Source of the DNA: Anaerolineae bacterium
GTDB lineage: Bacteria; Desulfobacterota; Desulfobacteria; Desulfobacterales; ETH-SRB1
Length of the DNA: 64,000 nt
Direction: 5' to 3'
NCBI GenBank assembly: GCA_035529315.1
Contig: DATKWZ010000015.1
Coordinates: 22,955 to 86,954 of the forward strand
Shown one piece after another: positions 38,306 through 64,000 of the stretch. A model generated the notes under the pieces. It saw only the letters and a program-made list of their open reading frames with translations. It was not told where the DNA came from and did not search any database. Position 1 is the stretch's first letter. Each line of letters starts with the position of its first letter. Position numbers and translations under genes: made by a program.

Positions 38306-40945
38306 CTATCCACGTGGTTGTGGGAACCAGGAGCTTATGTCTTTTAGCATTTTTTCCTTGTAATAAGCTGCTCTGGCAGGGTTGCCCATTATCATATCAA
38401 GCTGCCTTGTATGCATTGTAAGATATCCAAGTATCTTAAGACGTTTTATTAAAAAAGATTTATCATATCCCTCGATAGTTGCATTCATGTAATCTTCATG
38501 TATTTGTACCTGAAAATCATATTTGCCTAAAATTTCTTTTATAAGCTGCATTCTGCGAAGCTTTCTGGTAAGGTCCGCAGCCCCGCCCTTGAAACAGAAT
38601 TTTATGTAATTTTCTCTGGACTCATCACTGATAAAAGTCTGTACAACCGAATAATGATAACCGAACCGGCAGCTTAGATTGCAAAAGTTTTTTGAAATAA
38701 TGGCGCAGTCATTCTGAGAATAATTTGATTGATTTGATGGGGATAAATTACGATTCATGGTAGATTCGACCATTATGGACATCAATCCTTTAGTGTCAAC
38801 AGGAGGCGGGCCCTCCCATTCTACAGCGGTTATTCCCTCCCATAGAGCAAGCATCGGGACAGATGCTATATTTTCAAGTATTACAGTATTTTTTTCCACT
38901 GCTCCTTTTAAACCATCTCCCAAATCAATAAGCATCCACTGGGTTGGGAGACCATTTGCAACCAGCCTTTTCCCTGTATTTATATTTCTGTTCTTTTTGC
39001 CATAATCAAACATTTCTTCTACGGCCTTTTCATGGCATAAGCGGGTAATGTCGTGATATGTGTGGCAGCCGTCAGGCGTAAAATTGCCGGCTTTTGGATC
39101 AGTAAGATTCAGCGGGGTGATATGCTTCAGCATTTTTTTCAAGGTTATATAAACAGGGCTTCCTTTAATTATACTGGTATGTTGCGCGCGGTTTGCTTTT
39201 AATAATGCCTCGGCTTTTTCTTCGTATACTTTCCGTGCAAAGGCATCAACCGTGATAATAGATTTATTTTTAATTTTGCTGGTTGCTTCAATGGTATCAA
39301 AGAGCGCCGGAATACCGAATTCTCTTGCAACGGTAGCCAGATGACCGGTAATTCCTCCACGATCTGTTACAATTGCGGCAGCTTTATTCAATATCGCCGC
39401 CCATTTAGGCAGGGATTTTTTTGCCACTAAAACAGAGCCTCTGGGAAATTTATAAATTTCTTCGTCCGAGTTCACGATAAATGCCGGCCCGCATGCTACG
39501 CCCGGGCTTGCTGTAATGCCCCCACTGATTATCACACGGTTATTAACCTTTATTTCTGAGTCATCTTTATATTTATTGTCTTCCTTTATTATCTGTTTCA
39601 GCGGACGGGTTTGCAGTATCTTTATCTGACTGTTTTTTTCTATAGTCCACTCGATATCTTGTGGCGTTTGAAAGTGCTTTTCAAGCATAACAGCCTGTTT
39701 TGCCAGAAATTGGGCCTGTAAATCCGTGATAGCCGGCAGGTTTTTTTCTGTATCAGGCATTTTGACGGTTTGGAGATTTTTGTTGGAAAAAGTTAAAGTT
39801 TCCTGATCTTTGGCATGAATCTCTTTTTTAACCACTTGAAATGGCTGCTTCCTGGAAACCACAAATAAATCAGGTGATGTGCTCCCCTCGACCACTGATT
39901 TGCCTAATCCTTTAACTGCATTGATGAATATTTGATTATTGTGGATGTTGCCTGGATCTCTTGAATACATAACTCCACTGGAAACAGCTTCAACCATTGC
40001 CACACAGCCAACGCACATGACAATGTCTTCATCGCTAAAGCCCTTATTGAAACGGTATGTAATAGCCCATGGAGAATATTTGCTGGCAAGAACTTTTTTA
40101 TATGAGTTAATAAGTTCTTTAGAGCTTACATTCAGTTCTGTGTGATATTGACCTGCAAAGGATGCTTCCTGGCTGTCTTCGCCCAGGGCGCTGCTGCGCA
40201 TTGATACTTTGACATCTTTTTCTGTTTTTTCTTCCAGGCACTGGTATTCCGCAAGTATTGCTTTTTCGAGTTCTAAAGGAACACTTGATTGCATTATAAG
40301 CTTTTCGATATTTGCGCTGGCATTTCCCAGCATTGTTATATCTTCAATATCAACTGATTGAAGCTGCTGGCTGATTTTTTTTTGGAGAGAACCATGATTC
40401 AGGAACAGATTATATGCAGAGGTTGTAATAACAAAACCATGCGGAACACTAAGGTGTTCCATGTCCATAATTTCGCCTAAATTCGCCATCTTACTGCCAG
40501 TGTGCTTTGCGCTGTCTTTATTTATATTTTCAATCGATATAACCAGTCTGCCTTCGTCTGCCTCTTCCTTTTTTTCTATTATTTGATTTATTTTATATTG
40601 AATATCGGCAAAAGCATGGTAGAGCGTTTCATAACGATTGTCGGAAAGCTCATTTATTTTTTCAATGAGTTTATATATATTTACTGAAATGGATATGCAG
40701 TTTGCACGAATGAATTCCATGCTGAATTTTTTGTTTCCCTGCAGTGCCAATTCCATTTCCGACATAATCTTAAGAATTGTATTATTGATGCTTAAAAGAC
40801 TTTTGAAATTCCAGTACTTTGTTTTGAAGAGGGAGCGGATAACATCGTCGGGCGATTTTTCGGAAGTTGGGCCTTCCCCTTTTTTACCCGAAAAGATTTT
40901 TTTTATTGATTTCCTTAATCCAAACATCTTTACTCCAGACTTCAA
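38306..40945 (-). CDS. PEP-synthase-like protein (ATP-grasp + phospho-His swivel + non-canonical C-terminal domain)
   Basis: GSKMANLGE, MRSSALGED..SFAGQY, DIEW, LQTRP, GGITGHLATVAREFGIP; pyruvate-binding barrel motifs (NPxLGxRG, SIGxNDLxQ, CG) not found. Confidence 0.85.
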   Translation of the reverse strand: MKSGVKMFGLRKSIKKIFSGKKGEGPTSEKSPDDVIRSLFKTKYWNFKSLLSINNTILKIMSEMELALQGNKKFSMEFIRANCISISVNIYKLIEKINELSDNRYETLYHAFADIQYKINQIIEKKEEADEGRLVISIENINKDSAKHTGSKMANLGEIMDMEHLSVPHGFVITTSAYNLFLNHGSLQKKISQQLQSVDIEDITMLGNASANIEKLIMQSSVPLELEKAILAEYQCLEEKTEKDVKVSMRSSALGEDSQEASFAGQYHTELNVSSKELINSYKKVLASKYSPWAITYRFNKGFSDEDIVMCVGCVAMVEAVSSGVMYSRDPGNIHNNQIFINAVKGLGKSVVEGSTSPDLFVVSRKQPFQVVKKEIHAKDQETLTFSNKNLQTVKMPDTEKNLPAITDLQAQFLAKQAVMLEKHFQTPQDIEWTIEKNSQIKILQTRPLKQIIKEDNKYKDDSEIKVNNRVIISGGITASPGVACGPAFIVNSDEEIYKFPRGSVLVAKKSLPKWAAILNKAAAIVTDRGGITGHLATVAREFGIPALFDTIEATSKIKNKSIITVDAFARKVYEEKAEALLKANRAQHTSIIKGSPVYITLKKMLKHITPLNLTDPKAGNFTPDGCHTYHDITRLCHEKAVEEMFDYGKKNRNINTGKRLVANGLPTQWMLIDLGDGLKGAVEKNTVILENIASVPMLALWEGITAVEWEGPPPVDTKGLMSIMVESTMNRNLSPSNQSNYSQNDCAIISKNFCNLSCRFGYHYSVVQTFISDESRENYIKFCFKGGAADLTRKLRRMQLIKEILGKYDFQVQIHEDYMNATIEGYDKSFLIKRLKILGYLTMHTRQLDMIMGNPARAAYYKEKMLKDISSWFPQPRG

Positions 40946-40988: not shown

Positions 40989-41004
40989 ATCAAAAAATGT
41001 GCCA
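40989..41004 (-). promoter_or_regulatory. Sigma54 -24/-12 promoter for the PEP-synthase-like gene
   Basis: Minus strand TGGCACATTTTTTGAT (GG-N10-GA), ~45-60 bp upstream of the start. Confidence 0.7.
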
Positions 41005-41324: not shown

Positions 41325-41753
41325 ATGAAGCACAAGATATTGCTTGTTGATGATGAGGAGATAACGCTTAAATACCTTTCAAAATTCTTGATAAAAAAAG
41401 GTTTTGATATAAGTACGGCAATGAATGGCAGTGAAGCCTTGGAGAAGATTAAACAGCAGGATTTTATTACAGTATTGCTGGATGTTTTAATGCCGGGAAT
41501 AGATGGCATAGAAACCCTCAGGGAAATAAAAAAAATCAAGCCGATTACAGAAGTAATAATGCTTACCGGCCATGCCTCGGTTCAGGTTGCCATTGAAGGC
41601 ATGAGGCTGGGGGCATTTGATTATCTTATGAAGCCTTTTGATCGTGATGAACTTATTGAAAAGTTACGGTTGGCTTGTGAGAAAAGATTATTTAATGAAA
41701 AAGGTATAGATGCCGTCAATATACCGGAAATGACCTCGAACGAGCCAGAATGA
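41325..41753 (+). CDS. Stand-alone response regulator (REC)
   Basis: LVDDE, LLDVLMP, LTGH, LMKPF. Confidence 0.9.
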   Translation: MKHKILLVDDEEITLKYLSKFLIKKGFDISTAMNGSEALEKIKQQDFITVLLDVLMPGIDGIETLREIKKIKPITEVIMLTGHASVQVAIEGMRLGAFDYLMKPFDRDELIEKLRLACEKRLFNEKGIDAVNIPEMTSNEPE

Positions 41754-41791
41754 ATATAAATCCTTTTTCTTTTATTTGCCCTTTAGTTTCA

Positions 41792-41905
41792 ATTTCAAAA
41801 TGAAACATAGTCCCGAAATGAAACATATTTTCATATCATCTACTCTTGTTGGGCTTTAATATAAACAAATAGCTGCAACATGTCCTATGCGTTTCATATT
41901 GAAAC
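41792..41905. promoter_or_regulatory. Three further GTTTCA-N3-TGAAAC-type sites upstream of the usp-SLC13 operon
   Basis: 41792 ATTTCAAAATGAAAC, 41810 GTCCCGAAATGAAAC, 41891 GTTTCATATTGAAAC (extends to GCGTTTCA-TAT-TGAAACGC). Confidence 0.65.
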
Positions 41906-41969
41906 GCTACCCACTGCTCTTTCCTGATCTTCAAAATATAACAATCCGTAATTATTGAATATAATTATT

Positions 41970-41985
41970 TGGCATATTTCTTGAT
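41970..41985 (+). promoter_or_regulatory. Sigma54 -24/-12 promoter of the usp-SLC13-CMK-like-REC operon
   Basis: TGGCATATTTCTTGAT (GG-N10-GA), preceded by an AT-rich tract and palindromic sites. Confidence 0.7.
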
Positions 41986-41996
41986 TATAGTTTTTA

Positions 41997-42048
41997 TTGA
42001 ACCGCAAAAGCGAGCGCATTCCCCGCTGCTTGCGGCGGGGAGCTTCAA
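41997..42048. mobile_element. 52-bp miniature element, copy 2
   Basis: TTGAACCGCAAAAGCGAGCGCATTCCCCGCTGCTTGCGGCGGGGAGCTTCAA. Confidence 0.7.
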
Positions 42049-42123
42049 TTGATCAAAAGGGACTGTGGTTCCCTTTAAGGCCTGGGCCATATAATTTATT
42101 TAATCAATGAGGGATAAAGTTAG

Positions 42124-42567
42124 TTGAACAAGATACTCGTACCTTTGGATAATTTTTCTGAGATATCGCTGAATGCGGCTCGTTACGCTGTTGAATTCGC
42201 CAAGAGAAGCGGCTCTAAGCCAATTTTTCTGTTCTTATCAAAAGATGATAAAGCAATGTCAGATTGTTTTGAGCCAGACATTCCTCAAGAAAAGGACAGA
42301 GAAAGAAAAATCAGGGGAAAAGTAGAGCTGCTTATAGACAAGAGTACTATGGAAGGAATCAACATTGAGCAGTACGAGTGCCGTGGTGAATATATAGAAA
42401 AGGTCTGCGAGTTCGTGCGGGATTTGAACATAGCCGAGATAGTGATTGCCGTTCCTGATAAACAGGATGAGTATTATCAGAAAATCAAAAAAAATATATC
42501 TTTACTGGCTCAGATGACATCTTGCCGTGTATTAACCGTAAAGGAAAAAGCAAAGAGATTTGAATGA
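42124..42567 (+). CDS. Universal stress protein-like
   Basis: KILVPLD..E.SLNAARYAVEFA N-terminus; C-terminal CRVLTVK; TTG start. Confidence 0.72.
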   Translation: MNKILVPLDNFSEISLNAARYAVEFAKRSGSKPIFLFLSKDDKAMSDCFEPDIPQEKDRERKIRGKVELLIDKSTMEGINIEQYECRGEYIEKVCEFVRDLNIAEIVIAVPDKQDEYYQKIKKNISLLAQMTSCRVLTVKEKAKRFE

Positions 42568-42607
42568 TTAGGTAGTTTAATCTGATTAAAAAGGAGATTG
42601 ATTTTTT

Positions 42608-44425
42608 ATGGAAGCGAATGTGTTAACAACAGAAATGATTTTGGTCATGATGATGATAGGAGTAGCGGTGTTCCTTTTTATTGTCGAATGGATTCGCGTT
42701 GATATGGTTGCTATACTAATGACGATTATGCTGCCTTTGCTTCATTTAGTTACACCTAAAGAAGCGTTTTCCGGTTTTAGCAGCAATGCAGTTATTTCTA
42801 TCATTGCGGTTATTATCATAGGCGCTGGTCTGGACAAAACCGGACTCATAAACAGATTGGTTAAGCCGGTAATGAAATTGGCCGGCAACAGCGCGTCTCG
42901 GGTTGTTATTGCTATGGGAGCAACTGTAGCAGGAATTTCGAGTTTTATGCAGAACATCGGTGCTGCAGCTCTTTTCCTGCCTGCTGTCAGGCGTGTAAGC
43001 AAATCAATGAACATACCACTTCCACAGATGCTTATGCCCATCGGTTTTTGTGCAATTCTTGGCGGCACTGTAACTCTGGTGGGTTGCAGTCCGTTGATTC
43101 TTTTAAACGATTTGCTGGCTCCCTTTAATCTTAAGCCATTTGGCCTGTTTGATGTGACTCCTATTGGTTTGGCGTTAGTCGGGTCTGGAATCGGGTTCTT
43201 CATCTTTTTCGGACGGTTTGTGCTTCCTAAGGGAAAAATTGGAGATGGCGGTTCTGCTGATGAATCTATTAAGGGACTTGCAAGTTCTTACGAAAACATC
43301 GGCGATCCATTTGAGTTAAAAGTGCCTGGTGATTTTACCGATTTCAGAGATCCTTTGACGATTAAAGATTTAAGGGAAAAATATTTGGTAAATATTGTTG
43401 CGATTGCCGGAAGGGATGGTTTTAAGCTTCTTTCCGTTGATTCAGACATGGAGATAAGGTCTGATGTTGATATTGTTGCTTACGGACTGCGGAAAAATGT
43501 TGAGAAAATGGCCAAAGAACTTGGAATGCAGATTAAAGACTCTTTGGAATTATTCCAGAATGAAATGTCTCCAGCCATATCCGGAACCATTGAGGCCGTC
43601 GTTGCACCTCGTTCCGAGTTAATCGGCAAAACCCTGAGAAAGGCGCATTTCTGGGAACAGTTTCAGGTAAACCCATTGGCAATTTATCGTTCAGACAAGG
43701 CTTTTTATTCCGGGCTTTCAGATTTTAAACTGCAATCAGGTGATTCAATACTGCTTCAGGGTACTTGGGAACGGTTTAATATTTTACAGGAAAGACACAA
43801 TTTTATTTTTACAACTCCGGTAAGTGAAGTTATTAAACCGCAAAAATCTTTAATAGCCGGTTTTTGGCTGGCAGTAGCCCTTGTAATGATAATTATATTT
43901 AAAATTCAGTTGTCGGTATGTCTTATGACCGGAGCCTTTGGAATGATTGTATGCCGGGTACTCACTATAGACGAGGCATACAAGTCTGTTGACTGGCGGA
44001 CGATCTTCCTCCTTGCCGGACTTATTCCCTTGGGGATTGCAACCGAGAAAACAGGTACGGCGGCGTGGATTGCTCATACTATTCTTAATTTAATGGGCGA
44101 TGTTTCTCCTGTTGTACTGTTGACAGCCATCGCAGTGCTTTCCACTTTTTTTACTCTCGTTATTTCAAATGTGGGCGCTACAGTACTTCTTGTGCCGCTT
44201 GTGGTTAATATGGCTCTAGCTGCGGGCATAGATCCCAGGATGGCTGCACTTGTGGTAGGCTTGGCGACTTCAAATTCGTTTATGCTGCCGACACATCAGG
44301 TTAATGCGCTTTATATGGGGCCAGGCAGATATAGAAGTGTAGATTTTATAAAGGCCGGCGGGATTATGACAGTATTATTTATAACAGTATTAATCGGCAT
44401 GCTTTATTTATTTTACGGAGTTTAA
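42608..44425 (+). CDS. SLC13/DASS-family permease with central TrkA-C (RCK_C) domains
   Basis: GFSSNAVI, SSFMQNIG, LGGTVTLVGCSPLI, soluble insert (SELIGKTL), ISNVGA, PTHQVNAL.MGPG.Y. Confidence 0.88.
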   Translation: MEANVLTTEMILVMMMIGVAVFLFIVEWIRVDMVAILMTIMLPLLHLVTPKEAFSGFSSNAVISIIAVIIIGAGLDKTGLINRLVKPVMKLAGNSASRVVIAMGATVAGISSFMQNIGAAALFLPAVRRVSKSMNIPLPQMLMPIGFCAILGGTVTLVGCSPLILLNDLLAPFNLKPFGLFDVTPIGLALVGSGIGFFIFFGRFVLPKGKIGDGGSADESIKGLASSYENIGDPFELKVPGDFTDFRDPLTIKDLREKYLVNIVAIAGRDGFKLLSVDSDMEIRSDVDIVAYGLRKNVEKMAKELGMQIKDSLELFQNEMSPAISGTIEAVVAPRSELIGKTLRKAHFWEQFQVNPLAIYRSDKAFYSGLSDFKLQSGDSILLQGTWERFNILQERHNFIFTTPVSEVIKPQKSLIAGFWLAVALVMIIIFKIQLSVCLMTGAFGMIVCRVLTIDEAYKSVDWRTIFLLAGLIPLGIATEKTGTAAWIAHTILNLMGDVSPVVLLTAIAVLSTFFTLVISNVGATVLLVPLVVNMALAAGIDPRMAALVVGLATSNSFMLPTHQVNALYMGPGRYRSVDFIKAGGIMTVLFITVLIGMLYLFYGV

Positions 44426-44481
44426 TCAGGTCGTGGAAAATATATAAAAAACTTTAAAATATATTTTAAGGAGGGGCAAAA

Positions 44482-45312
44482 GTGTCCATTATAACTATTA
44501 CCGCAGGTTCTTACATCGGAAGGCAAATAGCTAAAAGTGCCGCCAAAAGATTGGATTACGAGTATATAGATAGTGAGAATATTTTATCACTGGTTTCTAA
44601 GGAATTCGGTGTTTCTGAACCAAAGCTTGTTCGAGCTTTTAAAGAAGCACCATCAGGCATTGGCATGTTTTCCAAGACTAAACCTGAATATATAATATTT
44701 ATTGAGACTTTGATCGCAGAGTGTTTGTTAAAAAATAATATAGTGTATTATGGGGTCGTCGGACTTCCACTTATCCAAGAGGTTCCTCATGTTCTCAAGG
44801 TCCAGATTATTGCTAACCTGGAGGACAGGATAAAAAACAGAATGAAGCTGGATAATATATCTCAGGATAAGGCAAGTAAAGTGATTGAAAAGGAGGATGA
44901 AGAGCGGACAAAGTGGGCTGAAGCTGTTTATGATATAGACATTGCAAATTCGAACTTATATGATCTTGTAATAAACATAGGGCATATCAAGGGCGATGAT
45001 ATGGAAGCTGCTCTGGAGACCATTATCAGTACCGTAAAACACAAGAAATTTCAGCCAATGACATATTCATTAAGATGCATGAAAAATGTTGCAATGTCAT
45101 GTCGTGTCAGGGCGACTCTGGCTGATATAGATTCAAAAATGCAGGTAAAATCCGATGAAGGAACTGTATATACATATACTAAAGCAATAAAGAAAAAGGC
45201 GCAGGATAAGGTATTAGAAATGAAACAAAAGGCCATGAGAATTGAAGGGGTCAAACACATTGAGGTTTTTATAGATTATGATTTATTTACAAAGGTTGCG
45301 CATGGGCAGTAA
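44482..45312 (+). CDS. Cytidylate-kinase-like protein with short C-terminal extra domain
   Basis: IITIT.GS.IG..IAK..AK.L.Y, LKVQIIANLEDRI, YDLVINI; degenerate P-loop; GTG start. Confidence 0.75.
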   Translation: MSIITITAGSYIGRQIAKSAAKRLDYEYIDSENILSLVSKEFGVSEPKLVRAFKEAPSGIGMFSKTKPEYIIFIETLIAECLLKNNIVYYGVVGLPLIQEVPHVLKVQIIANLEDRIKNRMKLDNISQDKASKVIEKEDEERTKWAEAVYDIDIANSNLYDLVINIGHIKGDDMEAALETIISTVKHKKFQPMTYSLRCMKNVAMSCRVRATLADIDSKMQVKSDEGTVYTYTKAIKKKAQDKVLEMKQKAMRIEGVKHIEVFIDYDLFTKVAHGQ

Positions 45313-45327
45313 TCTGCTCTAACATGT

Positions 45328-45744
45328 ATGGAGGGTAAAAAAATGAAAGAAAAATTAGAAATTCTGCTATTGGATGATGAAGCTATAGTTGGGAACAGAT
45401 TGGGGCCTGCGATTAAAAAAGCTGGTTATGGTGTAGAAGTATTTGATGATCCCCAAAAAGCTCTAAACAGGATCAATGAAAAGGAGTTTGATATTGTTGT
45501 TACTGATATAATGATGGCTGATGTGAACGGAATCCAGGTTTTAGAACAGGTGAAAAAAAAATCAGACAGAACCAAAGTTATTATTATTACAGGGTATGCG
45601 ACGGTAGCTCTAGCCCGTGAAGCAATGGACAAAGGCGCTTTTGATATGATAGCCAAGCCATTCAGTCCTAACGATCTCCGTATCTTAATTGCAAAAGCAG
45701 CTGCTTCCCTTGGTTATAAAAAAGAAATTGTAGCAGAAGCATAA
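45328..45744 (+). CDS. Stand-alone response regulator (REC)
   Basis: LLDDE, VTDIMM, ITGY, IAKPF. Confidence 0.9.
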   Translation: MEGKKMKEKLEILLLDDEAIVGNRLGPAIKKAGYGVEVFDDPQKALNRINEKEFDIVVTDIMMADVNGIQVLEQVKKKSDRTKVIIITGYATVALAREAMDKGAFDMIAKPFSPNDLRILIAKAAASLGYKKEIVAEA

Positions 45745-45873
45745 TTAATTTTGGTAAAAAAAGGGGGGGATTTATTGCTTGAAAATTAATATCTAGCATG
45801 AGATAAAATATAATTTTGTTTGTTTTGAACAGGTTAGTGCCTTATATGTTAAATGCTCTGAGACCTAAAAACC

Positions 45874-47385
45874 ATGCAGGAAAAAAAGATATTTCAAAAA
45901 AAGTTTGCTTTGACTACTGCTGACAGGGGGTTGCTTGAACGACCGCAATTTAGCTTTCGTTTGCACATGTCTCTGGTGTTCATTTTTTTTTCCTTATTTT
46001 CGATAGCAATTATTGTAGGTTCAGTTATAGCCATAAACAGGATACAGAAAAAACTGTACTTTGTTCAAGCCTCTGAAAGATACCTGTTTGAAATTGAACA
46101 GGCAAGGAGATGGGAAAAAAATTACTTTTTGTATGGCACTAATCTCGAAAATGCGATTCAATGCGCTTATAATGCAAAATCCCTTTTATCACAGAACTTG
46201 CAGAAATTAATAACTGTTTTATCTGCAGAACAGACAGAAACTATTGTTGAGCATCTTGATAGATACAGTAGTCTGTTGCAGGAACTTATGCTTTTGGAGA
46301 AAAACAGGATTGATAGTCGTGAAAAAAAGAGCAAAATTGAGACTTCCTTAAGAAAATATGGCGCTGAAATGGTTAAGGTAGCGGCTGCTCTGGTTTATAA
46401 GGAGCAGGATTCCATGAATGCAATGCTTCACCTTATCCAGAGAATACCCCTTTACAGCCTTGTAGTTGTTTTGTTAATAGGAGTATTCGTTGCACGTTTT
46501 CTTGTGCAAAGATTGATAAAACCGCTTAAACATCTAATTGAATGCACTCAGAGAATAGCAAAAGGAGATTTTTCACCGCTTAAACCAATTCGTAAGTACC
46601 GTGATGAGTTTACGACAGTGGAGGTGGCTATTAATCGTATGCTTAAGCAACTTAAATCACACGAAGCTGCGATGGTGGAATCACATAAACTTAGAGCAGT
46701 TGGAACTCTGACAGCCGGGGTTGCTCACGAATTAAACAACCCTCTTAACAATATAATGCTCACGGCACATGCAATGCTTGAGGATCATAAGGAGTTGTCA
46801 GAAGATGAACTACTTGAAATGCTAAACGATCTTATTGGCGAAGCCAACAGGTCCAGGAGTATAGTTCGCAATCTTCTGGATTTTGCAAGAGAAAGCGAAT
46901 CTGTTTCTGAACCTCTTGATCTTGGAGCGTTGGTTAACGATACTATTAAGCTGGCGCTCAATCAGGTAAAAGTTTCCGGAGCAAAAATAGAAACTCAAAT
47001 TCAGCCCAACCTACCCAAAATCCGCGGTGACACCCAGCAATTAAAGCAGGTATTTTTAAACTTAATCCTTAATGCATTAGATGCTGTTGACAAAAATGGA
47101 AAAATTATAATAAATGTTAAAGAATCTGAAATATCAGGATTCCTGGCCGTTCAGATAGAAGATAATGGATGTGGAATACCTGCCCATATTCTGCCTAATA
47201 TATTTGATCCGTTTTTTACGACAAAAGGACCGGGTAAAGGTACAGGGCTTGGTCTTTCTGTTTCACATGGAATCATTATAATGCACGGTGGACAGATCAA
47301 TCTTGAAACCGAAGAAGGAAAATATACAAGATTTACCGTAACTCTCCCTTCTAGAAATATTCCTGCGGATTTTAATAAAACCTGA
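45874..47385 (+). CDS. Membrane sensor histidine kinase (HAMP-HisKA-HATPase)
   Basis: Two TMs, HAMP, VAHELNNPL, NLILNA, DNGCGI, FDPFFTTK, GTGLGL. Confidence 0.93.
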   Translation: MQEKKIFQKKFALTTADRGLLERPQFSFRLHMSLVFIFFSLFSIAIIVGSVIAINRIQKKLYFVQASERYLFEIEQARRWEKNYFLYGTNLENAIQCAYNAKSLLSQNLQKLITVLSAEQTETIVEHLDRYSSLLQELMLLEKNRIDSREKKSKIETSLRKYGAEMVKVAAALVYKEQDSMNAMLHLIQRIPLYSLVVVLLIGVFVARFLVQRLIKPLKHLIECTQRIAKGDFSPLKPIRKYRDEFTTVEVAINRMLKQLKSHEAAMVESHKLRAVGTLTAGVAHELNNPLNNIMLTAHAMLEDHKELSEDELLEMLNDLIGEANRSRSIVRNLLDFARESESVSEPLDLGALVNDTIKLALNQVKVSGAKIETQIQPNLPKIRGDTQQLKQVFLNLILNALDAVDKNGKIIINVKESEISGFLAVQIEDNGCGIPAHILPNIFDPFFTTKGPGKGTGLGLSVSHGIIIMHGGQINLETEEGKYTRFTVTLPSRNIPADFNKT

Positions 47386-57841: not shown

Positions 57842-59476
57842 ATGGAACATGGAGTAACAGCACCGGTAGAAAAGCACAAACCTTTTTCCGGGAAATGGTG
57901 GAAAGGGGCGCCCGGATTTCAGCCTGGTATCATACTGGGTTTAATCATCTTTTTTGTTACTGTGGCTTATGTGATACCCGTTCCGCAGAGCATGGTAAAC
58001 CTCGTGCAGAAGGATAAAGTGCTGGGCGCCAAGTATAAGTCCGGAACAACCAACTTTGTTGATTCTTTCAACAGTCTTATGAAAAAAAAGGGCGCAGACA
58101 GATACACGCCGGAAGAGGTGGCCTGGAAGCTGAAGTTGTGCGTGGCCATGCTCTTTACCATCGCCTTTCTCTGGGGTACGGAGGCGATCTCCCTGGCATG
58201 TACGGATATCCTGATCGGTCTTGTTCTGTATATCTGGCTTATTCTGCCTATCAATGAGATATCAAAAGCCTACATGAAGGATGCGGTATTTTTTATCCTG
58301 GGCGTGCTTATCCTGGCCGCAGCAGTCGGGGTAACAGGGCTTGACAGGAGGATAGGTAATATTCTCCTGGGTAAGATAAAGGGGCTCAAGGGTTATTGTT
58401 TTATCTTTTTTCCTGTTTTAGCCGTAATTGCGGGCTTTCTTTCAGAACACGCGCTGGTTGCACTTATGTGTCCGATCCTGTGCATGGTATATCTGGCCGG
58501 GGAAAAAGCAGGCTGTAACAAGAAAGAGCTTCATGCCCTTGCCTGCTGCCTGTTTTTGGGGCTGTGTTTTGCCGGAAACGTGGGCGGATCAGGATCGCCT
58601 GCTGTTGGAGGCCGATCAGCTATAATGATCGGTTATTTCTCAACCTATGGCCTGCCCATGGATTTTCTCACATGGATGATGTACGGCCTGCCTGTGGTGC
58701 CGCCTCTTGCTCTTGCCTGCGCCTTCTGGGTATATTTTGCCATGGCCAGAAAGACCGGGCCTGCGCTTAAGATGGACCTGGGTCATATAATGAAAAAGGG
58801 TGTTGAGGGTATGGGGCCTATTAGAGGAAAAGAGCTTACCATGGCCGTTTTGTTTGGAGCACAGGTTGTTTTATGGATGGTTTTTAGCGGGAAGTTCGGC
58901 CTTGGCGGTACGAGCATGTTTATAGTCTTTTGGATCCTGGTCACAGGCCTGATGACATGGGAAGATGTTCAGAAGAGGGTGCGCTTTGATGTTGTAGCAC
59001 TTTATGCCGGAGCGTGCGCCATGGGTGTTGCCCTGAATAATACAGGCGCGGGTGTGTGGCTGGCCCAGACATTTGTAGGAATACTGCCGGAGTATTTCCA
59101 CAAAGGCATGGGTATTGTACTTGCCGCAAGTCTTATCACCACAATTATTACCAACTTCATGAGTGACGGCGCAGCAGTCGGCGCTCTGGGGCCTGTGGTT
59201 CTGCCTATGGCCGCTATCGGCGGTGTGCATCTGTGGAAGGTGGGACTTGCCTGTTCATTCGGGTCTTCTTATGCCCACGGCATGATCGTAGGTACTGTAA
59301 ATAACGCTATAGCTTATGGTATGGCCAAACATCCGGAAACAGGCGAGCAGCTCCTCACCCCGTTTGACTTTATCAAGTACGGAGTGCCGTTTGTTTTCAT
59401 ATCCATACTTATCCTCTGGGTGGTATGCTTTTTCGGGTACTGGCAGCTCCTGCCGTGGCCTGCAATAGCACCATAA
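57842..59476 (+). CDS. SLC13/DASS-family anion transporter
   Basis: FLWGTEAI, AGFLSEHA, GGSGSPAVGGR, TNFMSDGA, GTVNNAIAY. Confidence 0.87.
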   Translation: MEHGVTAPVEKHKPFSGKWWKGAPGFQPGIILGLIIFFVTVAYVIPVPQSMVNLVQKDKVLGAKYKSGTTNFVDSFNSLMKKKGADRYTPEEVAWKLKLCVAMLFTIAFLWGTEAISLACTDILIGLVLYIWLILPINEISKAYMKDAVFFILGVLILAAAVGVTGLDRRIGNILLGKIKGLKGYCFIFFPVLAVIAGFLSEHALVALMCPILCMVYLAGEKAGCNKKELHALACCLFLGLCFAGNVGGSGSPAVGGRSAIMIGYFSTYGLPMDFLTWMMYGLPVVPPLALACAFWVYFAMARKTGPALKMDLGHIMKKGVEGMGPIRGKELTMAVLFGAQVVLWMVFSGKFGLGGTSMFIVFWILVTGLMTWEDVQKRVRFDVVALYAGACAMGVALNNTGAGVWLAQTFVGILPEYFHKGMGIVLAASLITTIITNFMSDGAAVGALGPVVLPMAAIGGVHLWKVGLACSFGSSYAHGMIVGTVNNAIAYGMAKHPETGEQLLTPFDFIKYGVPFVFISILILWVVCFFGYWQLLPWPAIAP

Positions 59477-59493
59477 ACATACTTTGGGGGGCA

Positions 59494-59523
59494 ATAGAGG
59501 CCCTTTGCAAAAAGGGCCTCTAT
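59494..59523 (+). terminator. Strong hairpin after the SLC13 gene (terminator or stabiliser)
   Basis: ATAGAGGCCCTTT-GCAA-AAAGGGCCTCTAT, 13-bp stem, weak U tract. Confidence 0.55.
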
Positions 59524-59561
59524 CTTAATAAAAGAAACATCGACCTTAAACAAGGATTGAG

Positions 59562-60545
59562 ATGTCAGGAAGTATAATAAAAAAAACAGCAGGTGTTATC
59601 CGGTCAAGGCGCAATGCCGGGTATTCCGCGTGGATAGTCCAGTGTCTGACAGGGCTGTGTTTCCTTTTGACGGCGCTTGTTCCCTCCACACTTTATGGTG
59701 CAGGAGGCAGCCTGTATGCGGATGACAGCGCTCACTTTTCTTTGGCCATGCCATCCGGTGTTCAAGAGATTTCGCAGGATTGGCTGGAAAAGAGTTTGTT
59801 TGATCCAAAGCATCTCAAATGGTGTAAGGATGCCGTAGAAAAGTATGACAAGACGTTTGTGTATTTAGATGATACAGCCCAAACAGCAAAAGGCCTTGTT
59901 CTTTTTGGCGTAAGGACATACAAACATGAGAAAAAGCGCTTTAAGGTCTTTACTGATCGCCTTGAAACAGATGATTTTTTTGATCCTGGTGTGATTAAGG
60001 ATTTCATAGCGCAGATAGAAAAAAGACTCGTTGAAAAAGGTGCAAAAGATGTTACCGTAGGCACTCCGGTCCTGAATAAAGATAGAAATGATTTCAGTTT
60101 TACCTGCAACTATCTACTTTTCGGGGAACATGAGGCAAAAGAATTCCACTGGGTGTTTATGGGACGGACTCACCTGGTCTATCTTGATATTAATCTTTAT
60201 GCAGCAGATGACGTAGCCGTATATCAGAGTCTGATTGAAGATATTGCTGCTTCTTTCAAGTTTGAACAAGGCTTTGAAGCAAAGGGTTCATATGTTGATG
60301 CATTTGCAGATAAGATCGAAGCATATAACCTGTTTGGAATCAGTCTCTCTGAACTTGGAAGGTCGATGTTAGCTGTTTCCATGATCATATTTATTTTAAA
60401 TTTTCTTTTAAATCTAATACTTGGCCGTGTCACCAATCCAAGTAAAAAGCCTAATGCAATAACGGAATTTTGTCAAAGAAATAAGATGTGGGCAAGGCTT
60501 GCAACTGTTCCTGTAGGTATATTCTTATACCTGGCACACTGTTAG
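59562..60545 (+). CDS. Hypothetical exported protein with C-terminal membrane anchor
   Basis: Signal-like N-terminus, ~200-aa soluble domain, C-terminal hydrophobic helices; no family recognised. Confidence 0.65.
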   Translation: MSGSIIKKTAGVIRSRRNAGYSAWIVQCLTGLCFLLTALVPSTLYGAGGSLYADDSAHFSLAMPSGVQEISQDWLEKSLFDPKHLKWCKDAVEKYDKTFVYLDDTAQTAKGLVLFGVRTYKHEKKRFKVFTDRLETDDFFDPGVIKDFIAQIEKRLVEKGAKDVTVGTPVLNKDRNDFSFTCNYLLFGEHEAKEFHWVFMGRTHLVYLDINLYAADDVAVYQSLIEDIAASFKFEQGFEAKGSYVDAFADKIEAYNLFGISLSELGRSMLAVSMIIFILNFLLNLILGRVTNPSKKPNAITEFCQRNKMWARLATVPVGIFLYLAHC

Positions 60546-60584
60546 GGACTTTTGCTGAACAGAATATAATAAGGAGGGATAACA

Positions 60585-61040
60585 ATGAAAGAGTTTAGGG
60601 TGTTGGTAGTTGATGATGAGGATGATTTTCGCGAAACATTTATAAAACGTCTTCAAAAGAGAGAACTTAATGTTACCGGTGCGGAAAGCGGGGAAAAGGC
60701 ACTGGAGATTCTGGATAAACTACTTTTTGATGTGGTAATACTGGATGTTAAAATGCCGGGTATGGGCGGTGTGAAAACTCTTCAGGAAATGAAAAGAATA
60801 AGGCCGCTCATGGAGGTGATTATGCTCACCGGCCACTCAACCGTAGAAACGGCCATTGATGGACTGAAATTAGGCGCTTTTGATTACATAATGAAACCCG
60901 CAGATTTTGATGAGTTGCTGGAGAAGATGACACAGGCCTATGAAAAGAAAAAGGCCCATGAAATGAAAATTCAGGAAAGCAGGATCCGTGAGCTGGAAGG
61001 CCATCCCGGACGGGTCTTTGAACAGGTCAAGGAGAAATAG
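60585..61040 (+). CDS. Stand-alone response regulator (REC)
   Basis: VVDDE, ILDVKMP, LTGH, IMKP. Confidence 0.9.
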   Translation: MKEFRVLVVDDEDDFRETFIKRLQKRELNVTGAESGEKALEILDKLLFDVVILDVKMPGMGGVKTLQEMKRIRPLMEVIMLTGHSTVETAIDGLKLGAFDYIMKPADFDELLEKMTQAYEKKKAHEMKIQESRIRELEGHPGRVFEQVKEK

Positions 61041-61115
61041 ACTCCTTACGCTCCAGATATCCTGGCTGCGTTTTTTAAGTTGAGGCAAACACTTCAAAAA
61101 AAACGGAGGGTTATT

Positions 61116-61622
61116 ATGACAAGTAGTGGAGAAAGAAAAGTAAGGGATCTGATGATCCCGCTTGAAGATTACGATAGCATCTCATCGAATAAGTCTGTCA
61201 GGGATGCTTTTGAACTTATGGCTAAAACAGGGCATCACGCGATTCTGGTTCTGGACGAAAACAATGAGCCGATAGGACAACTGTCGCATAGAGACGCTCT
61301 GATGGCGATGGTACCTAAATATACCCCGACTGGGCGTAGCGATTCCTGGTTAACCCCTGAATCATTTAAAAACTATCCTGTCTTTCATTACGATGGTGAG
61401 TTCTCAGGACAATGTAAGGCACAATTGAAAAAAACAGTCAAAGAGGTTATGTCTTCATTTCCGGTTAGCATAGATGAAAGTGCCCCCCTGTCCGAGGCCG
61501 TTCACGCCATGGTGACCGAAAATATAGGCCGGATGCCGGTGGTGTCGGGCGACAAGGTCCTGGGGATGATCAGGCTCATAGAGATCTTTGATGAGATGAA
61601 AAAGGTTGTTTTGGCCCAATAA
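61116..61622 (+). CDS. CBS-pair protein
   Basis: KVRDLMIPL, HAILVLD...IGQL, VKEVMS, RMPVV...VLGMIR; ATG 61116 after GGAGGG. Confidence 0.85.
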   Translation: MTSSGERKVRDLMIPLEDYDSISSNKSVRDAFELMAKTGHHAILVLDENNEPIGQLSHRDALMAMVPKYTPTGRSDSWLTPESFKNYPVFHYDGEFSGQCKAQLKKTVKEVMSSFPVSIDESAPLSEAVHAMVTENIGRMPVVSGDKVLGMIRLIEIFDEMKKVVLAQ

Positions 61623-61638
61623 ATGTTGTGCAAGGACG

Positions 61639-61676
61639 AGGGTCTGTCATGAAATATTACATTCATGACAGACCCT
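61639..61676. terminator. Hairpin between convergent genes (likely bidirectional terminator)
   Basis: AGGGTCTGTCATGAA-N8-TTCATGACAGACCCT, 15-bp stem. Confidence 0.7.
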
Positions 61677-61696
61677 AAGGGCTTGGGGAAAAAGGG

Positions 61697-62119
61697 TTAT
61701 GGAGTATTGGCAACTGTTTTTTCTTTTAGTCGGCGCAGCTCCTTTTTCATCTGTTGCCACTCTAATGCCCTATCAATAGCAATCAATATCTGTTCCTTAC
61801 GAAAGGGCTTGGTGATGCAACCATAGGCGCCTTTACGTATAACCTCTTCTGCCGACTCAACAGAGCCATAAGCAGTGATGATGACTATGGGGATATATTT
61901 ATCTATCTTTCTAATCTCAGCGATGAGTCCCACACCATCCATACTTGGCATCTTGAGATCGGAAATCAGTAGATTATAATCTCCTGTTTTAATCAATTCA
62001 GGCACCTCTAAGGGATTGTTGGTGGTAGTAACTTTGTGCTTGGTCTTTTCCGAAATAATCATAGCAAGAAGCGCAAGCATATCAAGTTCATCGTCAACAA
62101 CCAAAATTTGTGCAGCCAT
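61697..62119 (-). CDS. Stand-alone response regulator (REC)
   Basis: VVDDE, ISDLKMP, ITAY, ITKPF. Confidence 0.9.
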   Translation of the reverse strand: MAAQILVVDDELDMLALLAMIISEKTKHKVTTTNNPLEVPELIKTGDYNLLISDLKMPSMDGVGLIAEIRKIDKYIPIVIITAYGSVESAEEVIRKGAYGCITKPFRKEQILIAIDRALEWQQMKKELRRLKEKTVANTP

Positions 62120-62268: not shown

Positions 62269-64000
62269 TTAGGCGTCCGGTTTGGTTTTCTCGTTATAAT
62301 GTTTCTTGATGAATTCCTTGATATACCAGTCTACAACAGCATCATTAAATAGAGTCATATCCAATTGTTTGGTGAATGCGGTCAACCTGGCCATTACACC
62401 CAGTTTTTTCTCAATACTGGTTCTGTCATAATTGGTTACCCTGCCATCCAGTACATCGCCGGTCCTATCAACGTGAAAGTCTATCTTTTCTAAAATCTCC
62501 TTTATGAGCCGAGTCCTTCTGGCACGTCTGTCATGGGATGCCCCGCCACCTTTAAACAAGAAACGGATATAGTTATCATTGATGCGTTCACCTGCATACG
62601 CCTCGATGGTCTGCAGGTGATAACCGAGCCTGACACTGAAGTTCATGTATTCCCTGGATATTACAGCAAAGCTGGGCTCCGACAATGACCTTTCGGAGTT
62701 GGGTTGCATAGTGGTACTGGCAATTACACTGAGCAGGCCTTTTACATTTACAGGTGGGGGGCCCGGCCATTCTATGGCCATCATCCCTTTTAGGAGAGCC
62801 TTCATGGGGATGCAGGCAATATTATCGACTGTAATATTGTCTGAAGCCTTTTCCACACCACCGCCCAGGTCTATCACACGCACATCAAGGGGAAGCTTGA
62901 CTACCAGTTTCACTGCCCCGCCCTTTCTTCGATGTGCACCTTCACCGAGCTTGAACATCTCATTCATCGCCATTTCATGGGCAAACCGGGTTATGTCATG
63001 AAAGGTTTCACAATATTGTGGACTAAACTTCTCATCCTCAGGACAGATAAGGTTCAGAGGGACTATGCTCTGCAAAACAGCTCTTAACATCTCAAAAACA
63101 GCGGTATCCTTAAAAGGGTTATCGCTTTTTCCCGCCTCAATAAGTTGCTCTATACGCCCCTCATAAATAGTTCCATTAATCGCATCAACGGTGATTTCCT
63201 GGCCGACTTTCAAGGTCTTCATGGCTATCTCGGTATTAAGAATGGTGGGCACACCATACTCTCTGGCAATTGCTGCCAGATGGCCTATAGGGCTTCCTAC
63301 ATCCGCAATAATAGCGCCGGCCTTATTCATGGCAGTCACAAATCTTGGAGAGGTGTGTCTGGCTACGAGAACAGCCCCTTCCGGGAAGCTCTTTAATTCT
63401 TCATCGTTGGTGACAAAATATACCTTTCCGGCGCCGACACCCTTGCAGGCAATTTGCCCCTTATTGATCAAAATCTTATGGCCCGGTAAAGATCTGGGAA
63501 CAGGCCTGCTCCGTTTTTCAGCTATAATCCGAAGTGGTCTTGCCTGCAAAATCAGAAGGTTATCATTCAAATCAAGCGCCCACTCTATATCCTGTGGCTT
63601 CCCATAGTGTTTCTCAAGTACCAGGGCATATCCGGCAAGGGTGGTTACTTGTTCATCGGTCAGACACGGCATTCGTCTTATATAATCCGGCACCCTGACA
63701 TCTATTGCGCCCTCTTCAAGGCCGCATATGAGCATAAACGGCTGCGCGGGTTGGTTTTTTTCCAAAATGGGCATGGGAATATCCCTTGAGACTACATAAG
63801 TATGTGGTTTTACTATACCATCAACAACATATTTCCCCAGGCCCCAAACCCCATTGATTATGATCCCCAGCTTGCCTTCATCCGTGGGATCACGCGAGTA
63901 CACAACCCCGCTTGCCTTGGCATCAATCATTTCAACCACTCCAACGGCCATAACCATATTTTCTATGTGGAAGCCTTTACTTCTACAATAGAATATAGCC
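62269..64000 (-). CDS. Second PEP-synthase-like protein, 3' part; start lies beyond the right edge
   Basis: Frame is open to position 64000 (AIFYCRSKGFHIENMVMAV). DIEWAL, LQARP, GSPIGHLAAIAREYGVP; the same non-canonical C-terminus as 38306..40945 (PLNL, TFHDITRFAHE, FLFKGG, TKQLDM). Confidence 0.85.
   Translation of the reverse strand, partial: AIFYCRSKGFHIENMVMAVGVVEMIDAKASGVVYSRDPTDEGKLGIIINGVWGLGKYVVDGIVKPHTYVVSRDIPMPILEKNQPAQPFMLICGLEEGAIDVRVPDYIRRMPCLTDEQVTTLAGYALVLEKHYGKPQDIEWALDLNDNLLILQARPLRIIAEKRSRPVPRSLPGHKILINKGQIACKGVGAGKVYFVTNDEELKSFPEGAVLVARHTSPRFVTAMNKAGAIIADVGSPIGHLAAIAREYGVPTILNTEIAMKTLKVGQEITVDAINGTIYEGRIEQLIEAGKSDNPFKDTAVFEMLRAVLQSIVPLNLICPEDEKFSPQYCETFHDITRFAHEMAMNEMFKLGEGAHRRKGGAVKLVVKLPLDVRVIDLGGGVEKASDNITVDNIACIPMKALLKGMMAIEWPGPPPVNVKGLLSVIASTTMQPNSERSLSEPSFAVISREYMNFSVRLGYHLQTIEAYAGERINDNYIRFLFKGGGASHDRRARRTRLIKEILEKIDFHVDRTGDVLDGRVTNYDRTSIEKKLGVMARLTAFTKQLDMTLFNDAVVDWYIKEFIKKHYNEKTKPDA

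Follow-up and report, generated by a model that had tools for sequence, protein, structure and literature searches.

The PEP synthase PpsA joins an ATP-grasp domain and a swivel domain carrying a catalytic His, in that order, to a TIM barrel for PEP and pyruvate. To our knowledge, the characterised enzymes with a third domain (PpsA, PPDK, rifampin phosphotransferase, glucan water dikinase and PigC) all bind a non-protein acceptor there. In several of them the acceptor is not pyruvate. Rifampin phosphotransferase (NF041857; PDB 5fbs and 5hv1) places its rifampin-binding domain between the ATP-grasp domain and a C-terminal His domain, and the prodigiosin-condensing enzymes PigC, RedH and HapC of secondary metabolism combine ATP-grasp and swivel His with a non-pyruvate substrate domain. 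Phenylphosphate synthase and the hydroxyphenylethanone kinase HpeHI use PpsA-derived modules, divided among two or three polypeptides, on small phenolic substrates (PDB 9goj; PMC12167813).

Two further proteins are relevant as precedents. PTS enzyme I, built from PEP-utilisers_N, swivel and PEP-utilizers_C domains, takes phosphate from PEP by way of the PEP-utilizers_C barrel and has no ATP-grasp domain; it is a conceptual precedent for a protein of the PEP-utilizer family that works with a membrane transporter. In VadK (Rv1127c) of Mycobacterium tuberculosis the third domain is missing, not replaced. VadK derives from PPDK and acts outside central carbon metabolism as a His-autophosphorylating regulator (PMC13400623), without a link to anion transport.

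The gene described here encodes a protein from a large, so far unnamed branch of the PEP-synthase/dikinase superfamily. It lies in a 64,000-nt stretch of contig DATKWZ010000015.1 (the window; Table 1), as a single open reading frame (38306..40945, minus strand) of 879 aa when counted from the TTG at 40945. That start, chosen in an earlier sequence-only reading, would add six codons to a gene that probably begins at the ATG at 40927 and encodes 873 aa: a GGAG lies 7 nt upstream of this ATG, and a public collection holds an identical 873-aa protein (P0271).

Table 1. Features of the dikinase-like gene and its surroundings in the window (residues in 879-aa numbering).
Feature	Position	Strand	Remarks
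Dikinase-like gene	38306..40927	-	873 aa; stop codon 38306-38308
Novel C-terminal domain	38309..39178	-	residues 590-879; alpha+beta (AlphaFold)
PEP-utilizers phospho-histidine swivel	39239..39448	-	residues 500-569; Pfam PF00391, E 8.5e-20
Predicted phospho-carrier His codon	39341..39343	-	His535 (His529 in 873-aa numbering), inside GGITGHLATVARE
PPDK_N ATP-grasp	39566..40501	-	residues 149-460; Pfam PF01326, E 4.8e-91
N-terminal extension	40541..40927	-	residues 7-135; family-specific
Sigma-54-like promoter element TGGCACATTTTTTGAT	40989..41004	-	about 60 nt upstream of ATG
Divergent neighbours	41325..47385	+	Pfam; NCBIfam DASS
228-aa membrane protein	48858-49544	-	no family assigned by search
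TauE/TSUP permease	49547-50833	-	Pfam TauE
Second DASS transporter	57842-59476	+	Pfam, NCBIfam
Unknown 327-aa protein	within 57842..62119		
Response regulator	60585-61040		
CBS-pair protein	61080-61622		
Response regulator	61697-62119	-	just downstream of paralog at 62269
Paralog	62269..64000	-	same family; reading frame open to base 63999, cut by window end

The first two catalytic modules of the protein, together with their catalytic residues, are those of the dikinase superfamily in its broad sense. The motifs quoted in the sequence-only reading are all present (GSKMANLGE at 150, RSSALGED at 250, FAGQY at 263, DIEW at 430, LQTRP at 444 and GGITGHLA at 530, and in the C-terminal region PLNL at 611, HDITR at 631, FKGG at 785 and RQLDM at 847), and the HMM scan that this reading had suggested finds PPDK_N and PEP-utilizers without PEP-utilizers_C. 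The closest match in both sequence and structure, over residues from about 131 to 591, is PpsA (NF005057, E 2.6e-114; PDB 2ols, 8a8e and 9dae), although the full-length model matches 2ols over 464 columns only, with 29% identity. The PpsA equivalog models align only at positions 4-478 of about 790 and score well below their cut-offs (383 against 598 for NF005057, 374.8 against 739.75 for TIGR01418). Models of other members of the superfamily also score below their cut-offs, with 72.9 against 843.45 for PPDK (TIGR01828), over partial coverage only, 219.7 against 999 for rifampin phosphotransferase, and 216 against 1300 and 210 against 1350 for PigC and RedH. For the prodigiosin-condensing enzymes the alignment is confined to the ATP-grasp region (E about 1e-62 to 1e-64). 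For the ATP-grasp domain, Foldseek retrieved PpsA 2ols, the ATP domain of rifampin phosphotransferase, which superposes well (5hv6; TM 0.86, relative to the target), and HpeI. The comparison with rifampin phosphotransferase made in the sequence-only reading is apt in principle, since both proteins would pair ATP-grasp and swivel His with a non-pyruvate acceptor domain, but not in layout: the order here is that of PpsA, with the His domain central. The split aromatic dikinases differ in another way, as the present protein is one chain with a different third domain.

In both modules the catalytic residues are preserved. Among 98 representatives of the family, K152, R250, E256, D257, D430, E432, Q445 and R447 are each conserved in 84 to 95, and the predicted phospho-His is present in 88; in close relatives the His and all other functional residues are retained (83 of 83). 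His535 aligns with the catalytic-His motif of the PTS enzyme I encoded in the window (16078-17847). The two proteins share the swivel alone (38% identity over 50 residues), the dikinase-like protein having neither the barrel nor the HPr-binding subdomain of enzyme I. In the predicted model, two low-confidence linkers bracket the swivel domain.

Relative to PpsA, the protein also carries an N-terminal helical extension of about 130 aa, found in almost all full-length relatives at a mean identity to the target of 25%. AlphaFold models it as three long helices (26-63, 70-94 and 102-118 in 873-aa numbering), and no Pfam family matched it above threshold. We considered an HPt-like role for these helices and rejected it, because they contain no conserved His. 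Both the extension and the gene-cluster context described below had escaped the sequence-only reading.

It is the C-terminal domain that sets the family apart. That the C-terminal region had been replaced was correctly recognised in the sequence-only reading, although the replacement measures about 290 aa (590-879) rather than about 270: where PpsA has its barrel, this protein has an unrelated alpha+beta domain. This domain has the largest share of conserved positions of the four domains (13% of its columns are at least 90% conserved), and charged or polar residues make up most of these conserved columns. Near-invariant residues are C627, H631, D632, R635, H638 and E639 in the first half, and R760, H764, N779, K786, G787, G788, R794, R798, D818, R847, Q848 and D850 in the second. 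On sequence grounds, this is the pattern that a second active site would be expected to leave. About 10 of the 98 representatives lack the swivel His and key ATP-grasp residues while retaining every C-domain invariant; the C-domain must therefore have a role independent of phosphotransfer in cis, which fits ligand sensing or scaffolding as well as catalysis.

Defined by this domain, the family comprises at least 1181 clusters at 50% identity, distributed in the Desulfobacterota and Nitrospirota. Most members are 840-890 aa long with the novel domain at the C-terminus; longer members (907-1078 aa) have no additional Pfam domain and hence offer no fusion clue to function. Four proteins on long contigs that seemed to consist of the C-domain alone (P0014, P0053, P0100 and P0105) proved to come from full-length genes broken up by frameshifts in long-read assemblies. 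Scanning a genome collection with one sequence returned only two close relatives. The paralog at 62269 is a second member within the window, with 39% identity over target residues 308-868, including the whole C-terminal region, and with all catalytic and C-domain invariants that are visible within the window. The sharing of C-terminal motifs between the two genes that had been noted from the sequence is therefore real, except that RQLDM reads KQLDM in the paralog. This paralog should not be taken for a 562-aa protein, because it runs off the end of the window. In our literature search on the family, and on dikinases in sulfate-transporter clusters, we found no characterisation. Public records label family members "pyruvate, water dikinase", so the mis-annotation as ppsA predicted in the sequence-only reading is a real one.

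The surroundings are those of transport and signalling, not of gluconeogenesis. The two paralogs flank a cluster of DASS transporters, two-component systems, CBS and Usp proteins, and between 41 and 64 kb of the window there are two DASS transporters, TauE, CBS, Usp and numerous two-component systems. Divergent from the target are genes for a single-domain response regulator, Usp and a DASS/CitMHS anion transporter with TrkA_C, with a cytidylate-kinase-like protein, a response regulator and a HAMP histidine kinase further along; the same gene set adjoins orthologs in loci L007-L012 and a distant family member in L005. Directly consecutive genes for TauE, the 228-aa membrane protein and the dikinase-like protein, in this order and on the same strand, occur in 30 of 43 informative loci, the canonical operon being histidine kinase, response regulator, response regulator, TauE, 228-aa protein and dikinase-like gene. 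In the remaining informative loci the gene lies beside DASS, CBS, response-regulator, histidine-kinase or NtrC genes, and no pair of TauE and 228-aa protein stands directly before the target.

This context matches a DASS sulfate-transporter cluster described for Desulfobacteraceae (PMC11887813). In Desulfosarcina variabilis, a DASS cluster of 30.5 kb includes the transporters Dvar_38230 and Dvar_38430. The sulfate assignment of the DASS and TSUP transporters is itself a genomic and proteomic inference. A candidate family member, judged by context, is the "PEP synthase" DITHS69_1988 (A0A1B9F8F1) of Dissulfuribacter thermophilus, which rises under thiosulfate disproportionation together with its neighbours _1989, a "transmembrane protein co-occurring with TauE", and _1990, TauE (PMC13490349; two different locus tags are given there for this "PEP synthase"). 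Upstream of the target, the element TGGCACATTTTTTGAT has one mismatch to TGGCAC-N5-TTGCW, and the orthologous loci L009 and L010 have the same or a similar sigma-54-like element at -60. It is only suggestive, because the window-wide count from the sigma-54 promoter scan was not above chance.

Based on these features, we conclude that the protein is almost certainly not a PEP synthase. More likely than not, it is a phosphotransferase that is driven by ATP, works through its swivel His, has a new acceptor domain and is tied to the transport or control of sulfur oxyanions. The sequence-only reading had likewise proposed a dikinase-type phosphotransferase rather than PpsA, and the intact ATP-grasp and swivel His and the absence of PEP-utilizers_C agree with this; the enzymology can be predicted as follows. 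ATP would be bound by the PpsA-type ATP-grasp domain, in which the expected residues are present. His535 would then be phosphorylated with release of AMP and Pi, a half-reaction (ATP -> AMP + Pi + His-P) probably held in common with PpsA, the closest relative. The swivel, placed between the ATP-grasp and C-terminal domains, may carry the phosphoryl group to the C-terminal domain, where a site formed by the invariant Arg, His, Asp, Lys and Cys and a strand-Gly-Gly-helix motif (FKGGAAD..R...R) would pass it to an acceptor other than pyruvate. We favour as acceptor a small anion, one that the neighbouring TauE/TSUP and DASS anion transporters handle. The enzyme would accordingly belong, physiologically, to a conserved cluster for the uptake of sulfate or sulfur oxyanions and its regulation in sulfate reducers and sulfur disproportionators.

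The most serious alternative, which we nevertheless regard as unlikely, is a regulatory kinase or energy-charge sensor in place of a metabolic enzyme. Reversible phosphorylation of the swivel His, dependent on ATP or on AMP and Pi, would report adenylate status; the C-domain would sense a ligand (e.g., sulfate, APS or a nucleotide) or dock a partner; and a phosphoryl group or conformational signal would go to a protein that tunes anion uptake, such as the single-domain response regulator, Usp, the TrkA_C of the DASS carrier, or the pair of TauE and 228-aa membrane protein. Single-domain response regulators do adjoin both window paralogs, within a dense signalling cluster (at least 6 receivers, 3 sigma-54 activators, Usp, CBS and TrkA_C modules), and several paralogs per cluster are common among the loci. 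The members lacking the His and with a degenerate ATP-grasp domain resemble pseudo-kinase regulators in keeping the C-domain, and the N-terminal three-helix extension resembles a signalling or dimerisation module. VadK, which derives from PPDK and not from PpsA, provides a precedent for an autophosphorylating regulatory kinase (PMC13400623), and an energy-status input to sulfate uptake has been postulated, its component left unidentified (PMC11887813). However, a protein acceptor could dock directly on the swivel, as HPr does on enzyme I, and a third domain in which about 18 charged or polar residues are near-invariant would then have no evident purpose. In addition, the regulators of the canonical operon are already served by a histidine kinase encoded within it, and the N-terminal extension is without a conserved His. 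Furthermore, we know of no PEP-utilizer His that passes phosphate to a receiver Asp.

A genuine PEP synthase, with a pyruvate/PEP domain diverged beyond recognition, is very improbable. The PpsA domain order, the closeness of the ATP-grasp and swivel domains to PpsA and the database name all agree with such an enzyme. So does the presence, at conserved C-domain positions, of a Cys, Arg, Glu, Asn and Asp, the residue types found around the pyruvate site of PPDK. Nonetheless, by no method tried did the C-terminal region align to PEP-utilizers_C. Even at E<=1, Pfam detected this family (PF02896) neither in the target nor in the 47 aligned relatives, whose C-terminal regions gave just scattered chance matches. 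There was no NCBIfam match to the C-domain, the family profile found only noise among PDB sequences (E >= 0.26), and profile-profile comparison with the window's enzyme I (hhalign) matched the swivel domain alone. The barrel motifs NPALGLR (361), SIGTNDL (459) and CGE (511) occur in that enzyme I, as the sequence-only reading had stated, and in neither the target nor the paralog. Structure prediction and a fold search, which it had also proposed, point the same way: the predicted secondary structure is not that of a (beta/alpha)8 barrel, the AlphaFold model of the C-domain (pLDDT 82) is alpha+beta and not a TIM barrel, and Foldseek with this model found no convincing match in the PDB (best E 5e-3, TM 0.21) and nothing in BFVD. 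The barrels of PpsA, PPDK and enzyme I, all present in the PDB library, were not retrieved, nor was rifampin phosphotransferase. Small T3SS-chaperone/YbjN-like proteins, LAGLIDADG nucleases and arginine kinases came up as candidates and were set aside as unconvincing. Finally, the equivalog scores are about half of the cut-offs, and the context is one of transport and signalling, not gluconeogenesis. That the gene is a decaying ppsA remnant with a junk C-terminal sequence has a negligible chance of being right, as its only point is that the third domain is not recognisable, whereas the open reading frame is unbroken and has a ribosome-binding site, conservation across the family's clusters is highest in the C-terminal region, the AlphaFold model is confident and no functional residue has been lost in any of the 83 close relatives.

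As a more speculative proposal, which we think improbable, the family would be a missing ATP/AMP-linked component of sulfur-oxyanion transport in sulfate reducers and disproportionators. It could act in either of two modes. In the first, the anion that the TauE/TSUP and DASS carriers bring in, or else a cofactor for that anion, would be phosphorylated in a PTS-like "transport and trap" step that is driven by ATP and relies on an acceptor fold not seen before. In the second, the protein would sense adenylate charge and gate the same carriers by means of its new C-terminal domain.

In marine sediments, dissimilatory sulfate reduction is responsible for a large part of the carbon that is mineralised. 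Sulfate uptake and its control in sulfate reducers are still argued from genomics (PMC5840216, PMC11887813), and the present family sits inside the clusters of sulfate transporters and regulators while being routinely mislabelled as PEP synthase. This label inflates the calling of gluconeogenesis in metabolic reconstructions and in proteomics, where an up-regulated "PEP synthase" has been taken as a sign of gluconeogenesis (PMC13490349), and it conceals what may be an enzyme or a regulator in the handling of sulfur anions. As the C-domain has neither a Pfam model nor a PDB relative, it is a clean target for structural work and for the definition of a new domain family. Once found, the acceptor would extend the few known dikinase chemistries by a new reaction or by a new logic of regulation.

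We conclude that the dikinase-like gene encodes a PEP-synthase-like protein whose C-terminal domain has been replaced, which bears out the sequence-only reading as a whole. The ATP-grasp motifs quoted there (GSKMANLGE at residue 150, RSSALGED at 250, FAGQY at 263, DIEW at 430, and LQTRP at 444), the swivel motif (GGITGHLA at 530), and the C-terminal motifs (PLNL at 611, HDITR at 631, FKGG at 785, and RQLDM at 847) all occur in the protein; the barrel motifs NPALGLR, SIGTNDL, and CGE are present in enzyme I, the PTS protein encoded at 16078, and absent here. An HMM scan (Pfam, E ≤ 1) found PPDK_N and PEP-utilizers and no further domain. PEP-utilizers_C, alignment to which had been named beforehand as contrary evidence, was not among the matches, and the finding is upheld. 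Residue numbers follow the 879-aa version, counted from a TTG. The true start is probably six codons downstream, at the ATG at 40927, since GGAG lies 7 nt upstream of this ATG and the protein in public gene calls has 873 aa.

The protein has four parts: an N-terminal extension, the ATP-grasp, a swivel domain with His535, and a new C-terminal domain (the C-domain, residues 590-879). The domain order is that of PpsA, all catalytic residues of the PpsA-type ATP-grasp and the swivel His are present, and the swivel domain lies between two flexible linkers, which have low confidence in the full-length model. The extension, of about 130 aa, is missing in PpsA and found in nearly all relatives; it has three long predicted helices (26-63, 70-94, and 102-118 in the 873-aa numbering of the model) and no conserved His. 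Among 98 full-length representatives, columns conserved at ≥90% make up 2% of the extension, 6% of the ATP-grasp, 8% of the swivel domain, and 13% of the C-domain. The C-domain is under strong constraint and has many Arg, His, and Asp residues. Its invariants are mostly charged or polar, and D632, H764, G787, G788, R798, and D850 are kept in all 98. In the model, a strand-loop-helix element carries FKGGAAD..R...R, by inference a candidate anion or phosphate-binding site.

Judged from its sequence, the protein is a member of the dikinase superfamily that would work like one. PpsA is its closest relative there, but the third-domain and cut-off tests fail for PpsA, as they do for PPDK, rifampin phosphotransferase, PigC/RedH, and enzyme I. 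Only the first ~478 of ~790 positions of the NCBI PpsA equivalog models align, with scores of 383 (cut-off 598) and 375 (cut-off 740), and the cut-offs of the PPDK, rifampin phosphotransferase, and PigC/RedH models are missed by still wider margins. PpsA sequences from the PDB can be aligned to residues of about 131-591 only. The C-domain tests were based on an alignment of the final 300 residues with those of 46 relatives. PEP-utilizers_C was detected by Pfam in none of these 47 members, the alignment profile matched no PDB sequence (best E 0.26), and profile-profile comparison with enzyme I recovered only the swivel segment, contributed by the longer rows. The AlphaFold2 model built from this alignment is confident (pLDDT 82, pTM 0.70) and has an alpha+beta fold, with the HDITR..HE motif on a long helix followed by helices and mainly antiparallel strands, and no (beta/alpha)8 barrel. 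Foldseek against 350,542 PDB chains returned nothing below E 1e-3 (top TM-score 0.21), and a BFVD search gave no match; structure prediction and fold search thus agree with the replaced-domain claim. The full-length model (pLDDT 81) aligns with PpsA 2ols over 464 columns and, for the ATP domain, also matches rifampin phosphotransferase and HpeI; its C-terminal third has no structural match.

The C-domain defines a family on the scale of 1181 clusters or more: an exhaustive HMMER search with it matched 1181 cluster representatives (clustering at 50% identity) at E ≤ 1e-3, of which 500 pass E ≤ 1e-30. The matches are mostly 840-890 aa long with the C-domain at the C terminus, and longer members have no extra Pfam domain. 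Misannotation as ppsA had been predicted, and some sources do name members "pyruvate, water dikinase"; others use "PEP-utilizing enzyme" or "PEP/pyruvate-binding domain-containing protein." The taxa recorded for members are Desulfobacteraceae, Desulfobacterales, Desulfovibrionales, Thermodesulfobacteriota, and Nitrospirota/Nitrospiraceae; isolated records carry the label Anaerolineae or Pseudomonadota. Among genome matches, an uncultured Desulfobacteraceae MAG came closest at 92%, followed by a deltaproteobacterial MAG at 78%. About 10 of the 98 diverse representatives have R, L, S, or Y in place of the swivel His and have also lost ATP-grasp residues, while keeping all C-domain invariants; they are possible pseudo-enzymes or partners of active paralogs. 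In long-read metagenome assemblies (L003-L006), frameshifts break family genes into two or three ORFs; the C-domain-only entries of 319-397 aa that this creates in the protein database are spurious.

The window's second family member is 39% identical over residues 308-868, including the entire C-terminal region. The C-terminal motifs described as common to both are so overall, except that RQLDM reads KQLDM in the paralog. Its reading frame remains open up to the window end; therefore, it is cut off by the window edge and not shortened in the genome. A third member, P0365 (870 aa), is 50% identical to the dikinase-like protein and 38% to the window paralog. Its record lists a longest contig of 381,681 bp, as does that of the dikinase-like protein itself, so that the source genome may carry at least three paralogs. 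The Anaerolineae label on P0365 in one source is probably a binning error.

Features of the dikinase-like protein, its family, and the window
Feature	Position	Strand	Remarks
Dikinase-like ORF	38306-40945	-	single long ORF, 879 aa counted from TTG
PPDK_N (ATP-grasp)	residues 149-460		Pfam E 5e-91
PEP-utilizers swivel domain	residues 500-569		Pfam E 8e-20
C-domain invariants, first set	C627, H631, D632, R635, H638, E639, R760, H764, N779		
C-domain invariants, second set	K786, G787, G788, R794, R798, D818, R847, Q848, D850		
His-less subgroup			none in window; P0149, P0174, P0186, P0190, P0192, P0197, P0202, P0210, P0212, P0222
Cluster part 1			response regulator, Usp, DASS/TrkA_C transporter, cytidylate-kinase-like protein, response regulator, HAMP histidine kinase
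Cluster part 2	47424, 51583, 54513 (activators)		three sigma-54 activators (NtrC-type), PAS histidine kinase
Cluster part 3	48858-50833		TauE and 228-aa protein
228-aa membrane protein	48858-49544	-	hydrophobic segments: one N-terminal, two C-terminal
Cluster part 4			second DASS transporter, CBS-pair protein, more receivers, then second paralog
Second paralog	62269	-	
Cytidylate_kin2, window	44482-45312	+	
Cytidylate_kin2, metagenome loci	L005 9191-11285; L021 10945-13037; L059 3784-4614		
Sigma-54 consensus, perfect	51355-51370	-	TGGCACCTGTATTGCT; ~520 nt upstream of TauE gene
Sigma-54 element, one mismatch	40989-41004	-	~60 nt upstream of dikinase-like gene
Enzyme I	16078-17847	+	complete PTS protein, swivel His and intact PEP-utilizers_C barrel

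The ~23 kb of the window from 41325 to 64000 form a dense run of signaling and anion-transport genes, with two DASS carriers (one with TrkA_C), two histidine kinases, and at least six single-domain receivers; for the proteins at 57153-57668 and 59562-60545, no family was found. The run corresponds to a 30.5-kb cluster of Desulfosarcina variabilis, described as "DASS-type sulfate transporter," which contains many two-component systems and CBS proteins and is conserved across Desulfobacteraceae and in a further 14 sulfate reducers (PMC11887813). A dikinase is mentioned neither in the text of that paper nor in the supplements examined. Sigma-54 elements number three window-wide against 2.8 expected, not above chance. 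The host genome of enzyme I appears to be that of a Desulfobacteraceae member.

The 228-aa protein belongs to no Pfam or NCBIfam family. In other genomes, it is nearly always flanked by TauE and a dikinase-like gene, and a Dissulfuribacter paper (PMC13490349) names it for its co-occurrence with TauE/SafE; no dikinase-like gene follows the window's own pair. We surveyed 80 metagenome loci found with the family profile, calling ORFs and matching them to window proteins. Among 43 full-length genes whose upstream flank spans ≥2.2 kb, 30 immediately follow TauE and the 228-aa protein, in that order and in the same orientation; the remaining 13 adjoin response regulators, NtrC-type activators, histidine kinases, DASS transporters, or CBS proteins. 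Clusters often hold two or three family paralogs. On long contigs, four distant members share one gene order: response regulator, TauE/TSUP permease, unannotated membrane protein, and dikinase-like gene, the last split by assembly frameshifts. Orthologs of the window gene (L001, L002, and L007-L012; 70-91% identical) lack the TauE pair. Where upstream sequence suffices (L007-L012), they are divergent from all or part of a window-type run of response regulator, Usp, DASS with TrkA_C, cytidylate-kinase-like protein, response regulator, histidine kinase, and NtrC. Cytidylate_kin2 (P-loop NMP-kinase-like) proteins recur beside family members, sometimes fused to receivers.

In Dissulfuribacter thermophilus, proteomics found three adjacent genes more abundant under thiosulfate disproportionation: DITHS69_1988, a "phosphoenolpyruvate synthase" (log2 fold change 3.40), DITHS69_1989, named as a transmembrane protein that co-occurs with the TauE/SafE sulfite exporter (1.79), and DITHS69_1990, TauE/SafE (1.56); a nearby Usp (_1982) and a "sulfur deprivation response regulator" (_1984) both decrease (PMC13490349). 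The authors classed the PEP synthase under gluconeogenesis (PMC13490349). The order of these three genes is typical of the family, from which we infer that DITHS69_1988 is a member. The "PEP synthase" A0A1B9F8F1 is tagged DITHS69_1988 in Table 2 and DITHS69_1161 in section 3.2.1 of that paper (PMC13490349); neighboring accessions suggest that the former is correct.

In the mechanism that we propose, ATP would phosphorylate His535, releasing AMP and Pi in the manner of PpsA, after which the swivel domain would carry the phosphoryl group to the C-domain, and the C-domain would hand it to an acceptor other than pyruvate. The usual operon comprises a histidine kinase, regulators, a TSUP permease, the membrane protein, and the dikinase-like gene. 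A small anion is the favored acceptor because, to our knowledge, the third domain, where characterized dikinase relatives keep it, always serves a nonprotein acceptor, and because this operon looks like a sensor, a transporter, and a first enzyme. In the main rival reading, which we consider rather unlikely, the protein would act on cluster proteins as a regulatory kinase or a sensor of adenylate charge; in its favor are the surrounding signaling genes, the presence of several paralogs, the members without the swivel His, and the precedent of VadK (PMC13400623). A true PEP synthase is very improbable and effectively excluded, as the failed third-domain and cut-off tests support a dikinase-type protein of another kind. 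A dead remnant has a negligible chance and is likewise effectively excluded, every tracked ATP-grasp, swivel, and C-domain residue being intact in 83 of 83 close relatives at metagenome loci.

We found no paper that characterizes this family or notes it in sulfate-transporter clusters. Beyond the sequence-only reading, the analysis adds the size of the family, the extension at the N terminus, the subgroup without the swivel His, and the setting in transporter clusters. Overall, we rate the protein as a known phosphotransfer engine joined to a new domain, acceptor or effector, that has no structural match, and its family as consistently linked to sulfur-anion transport.
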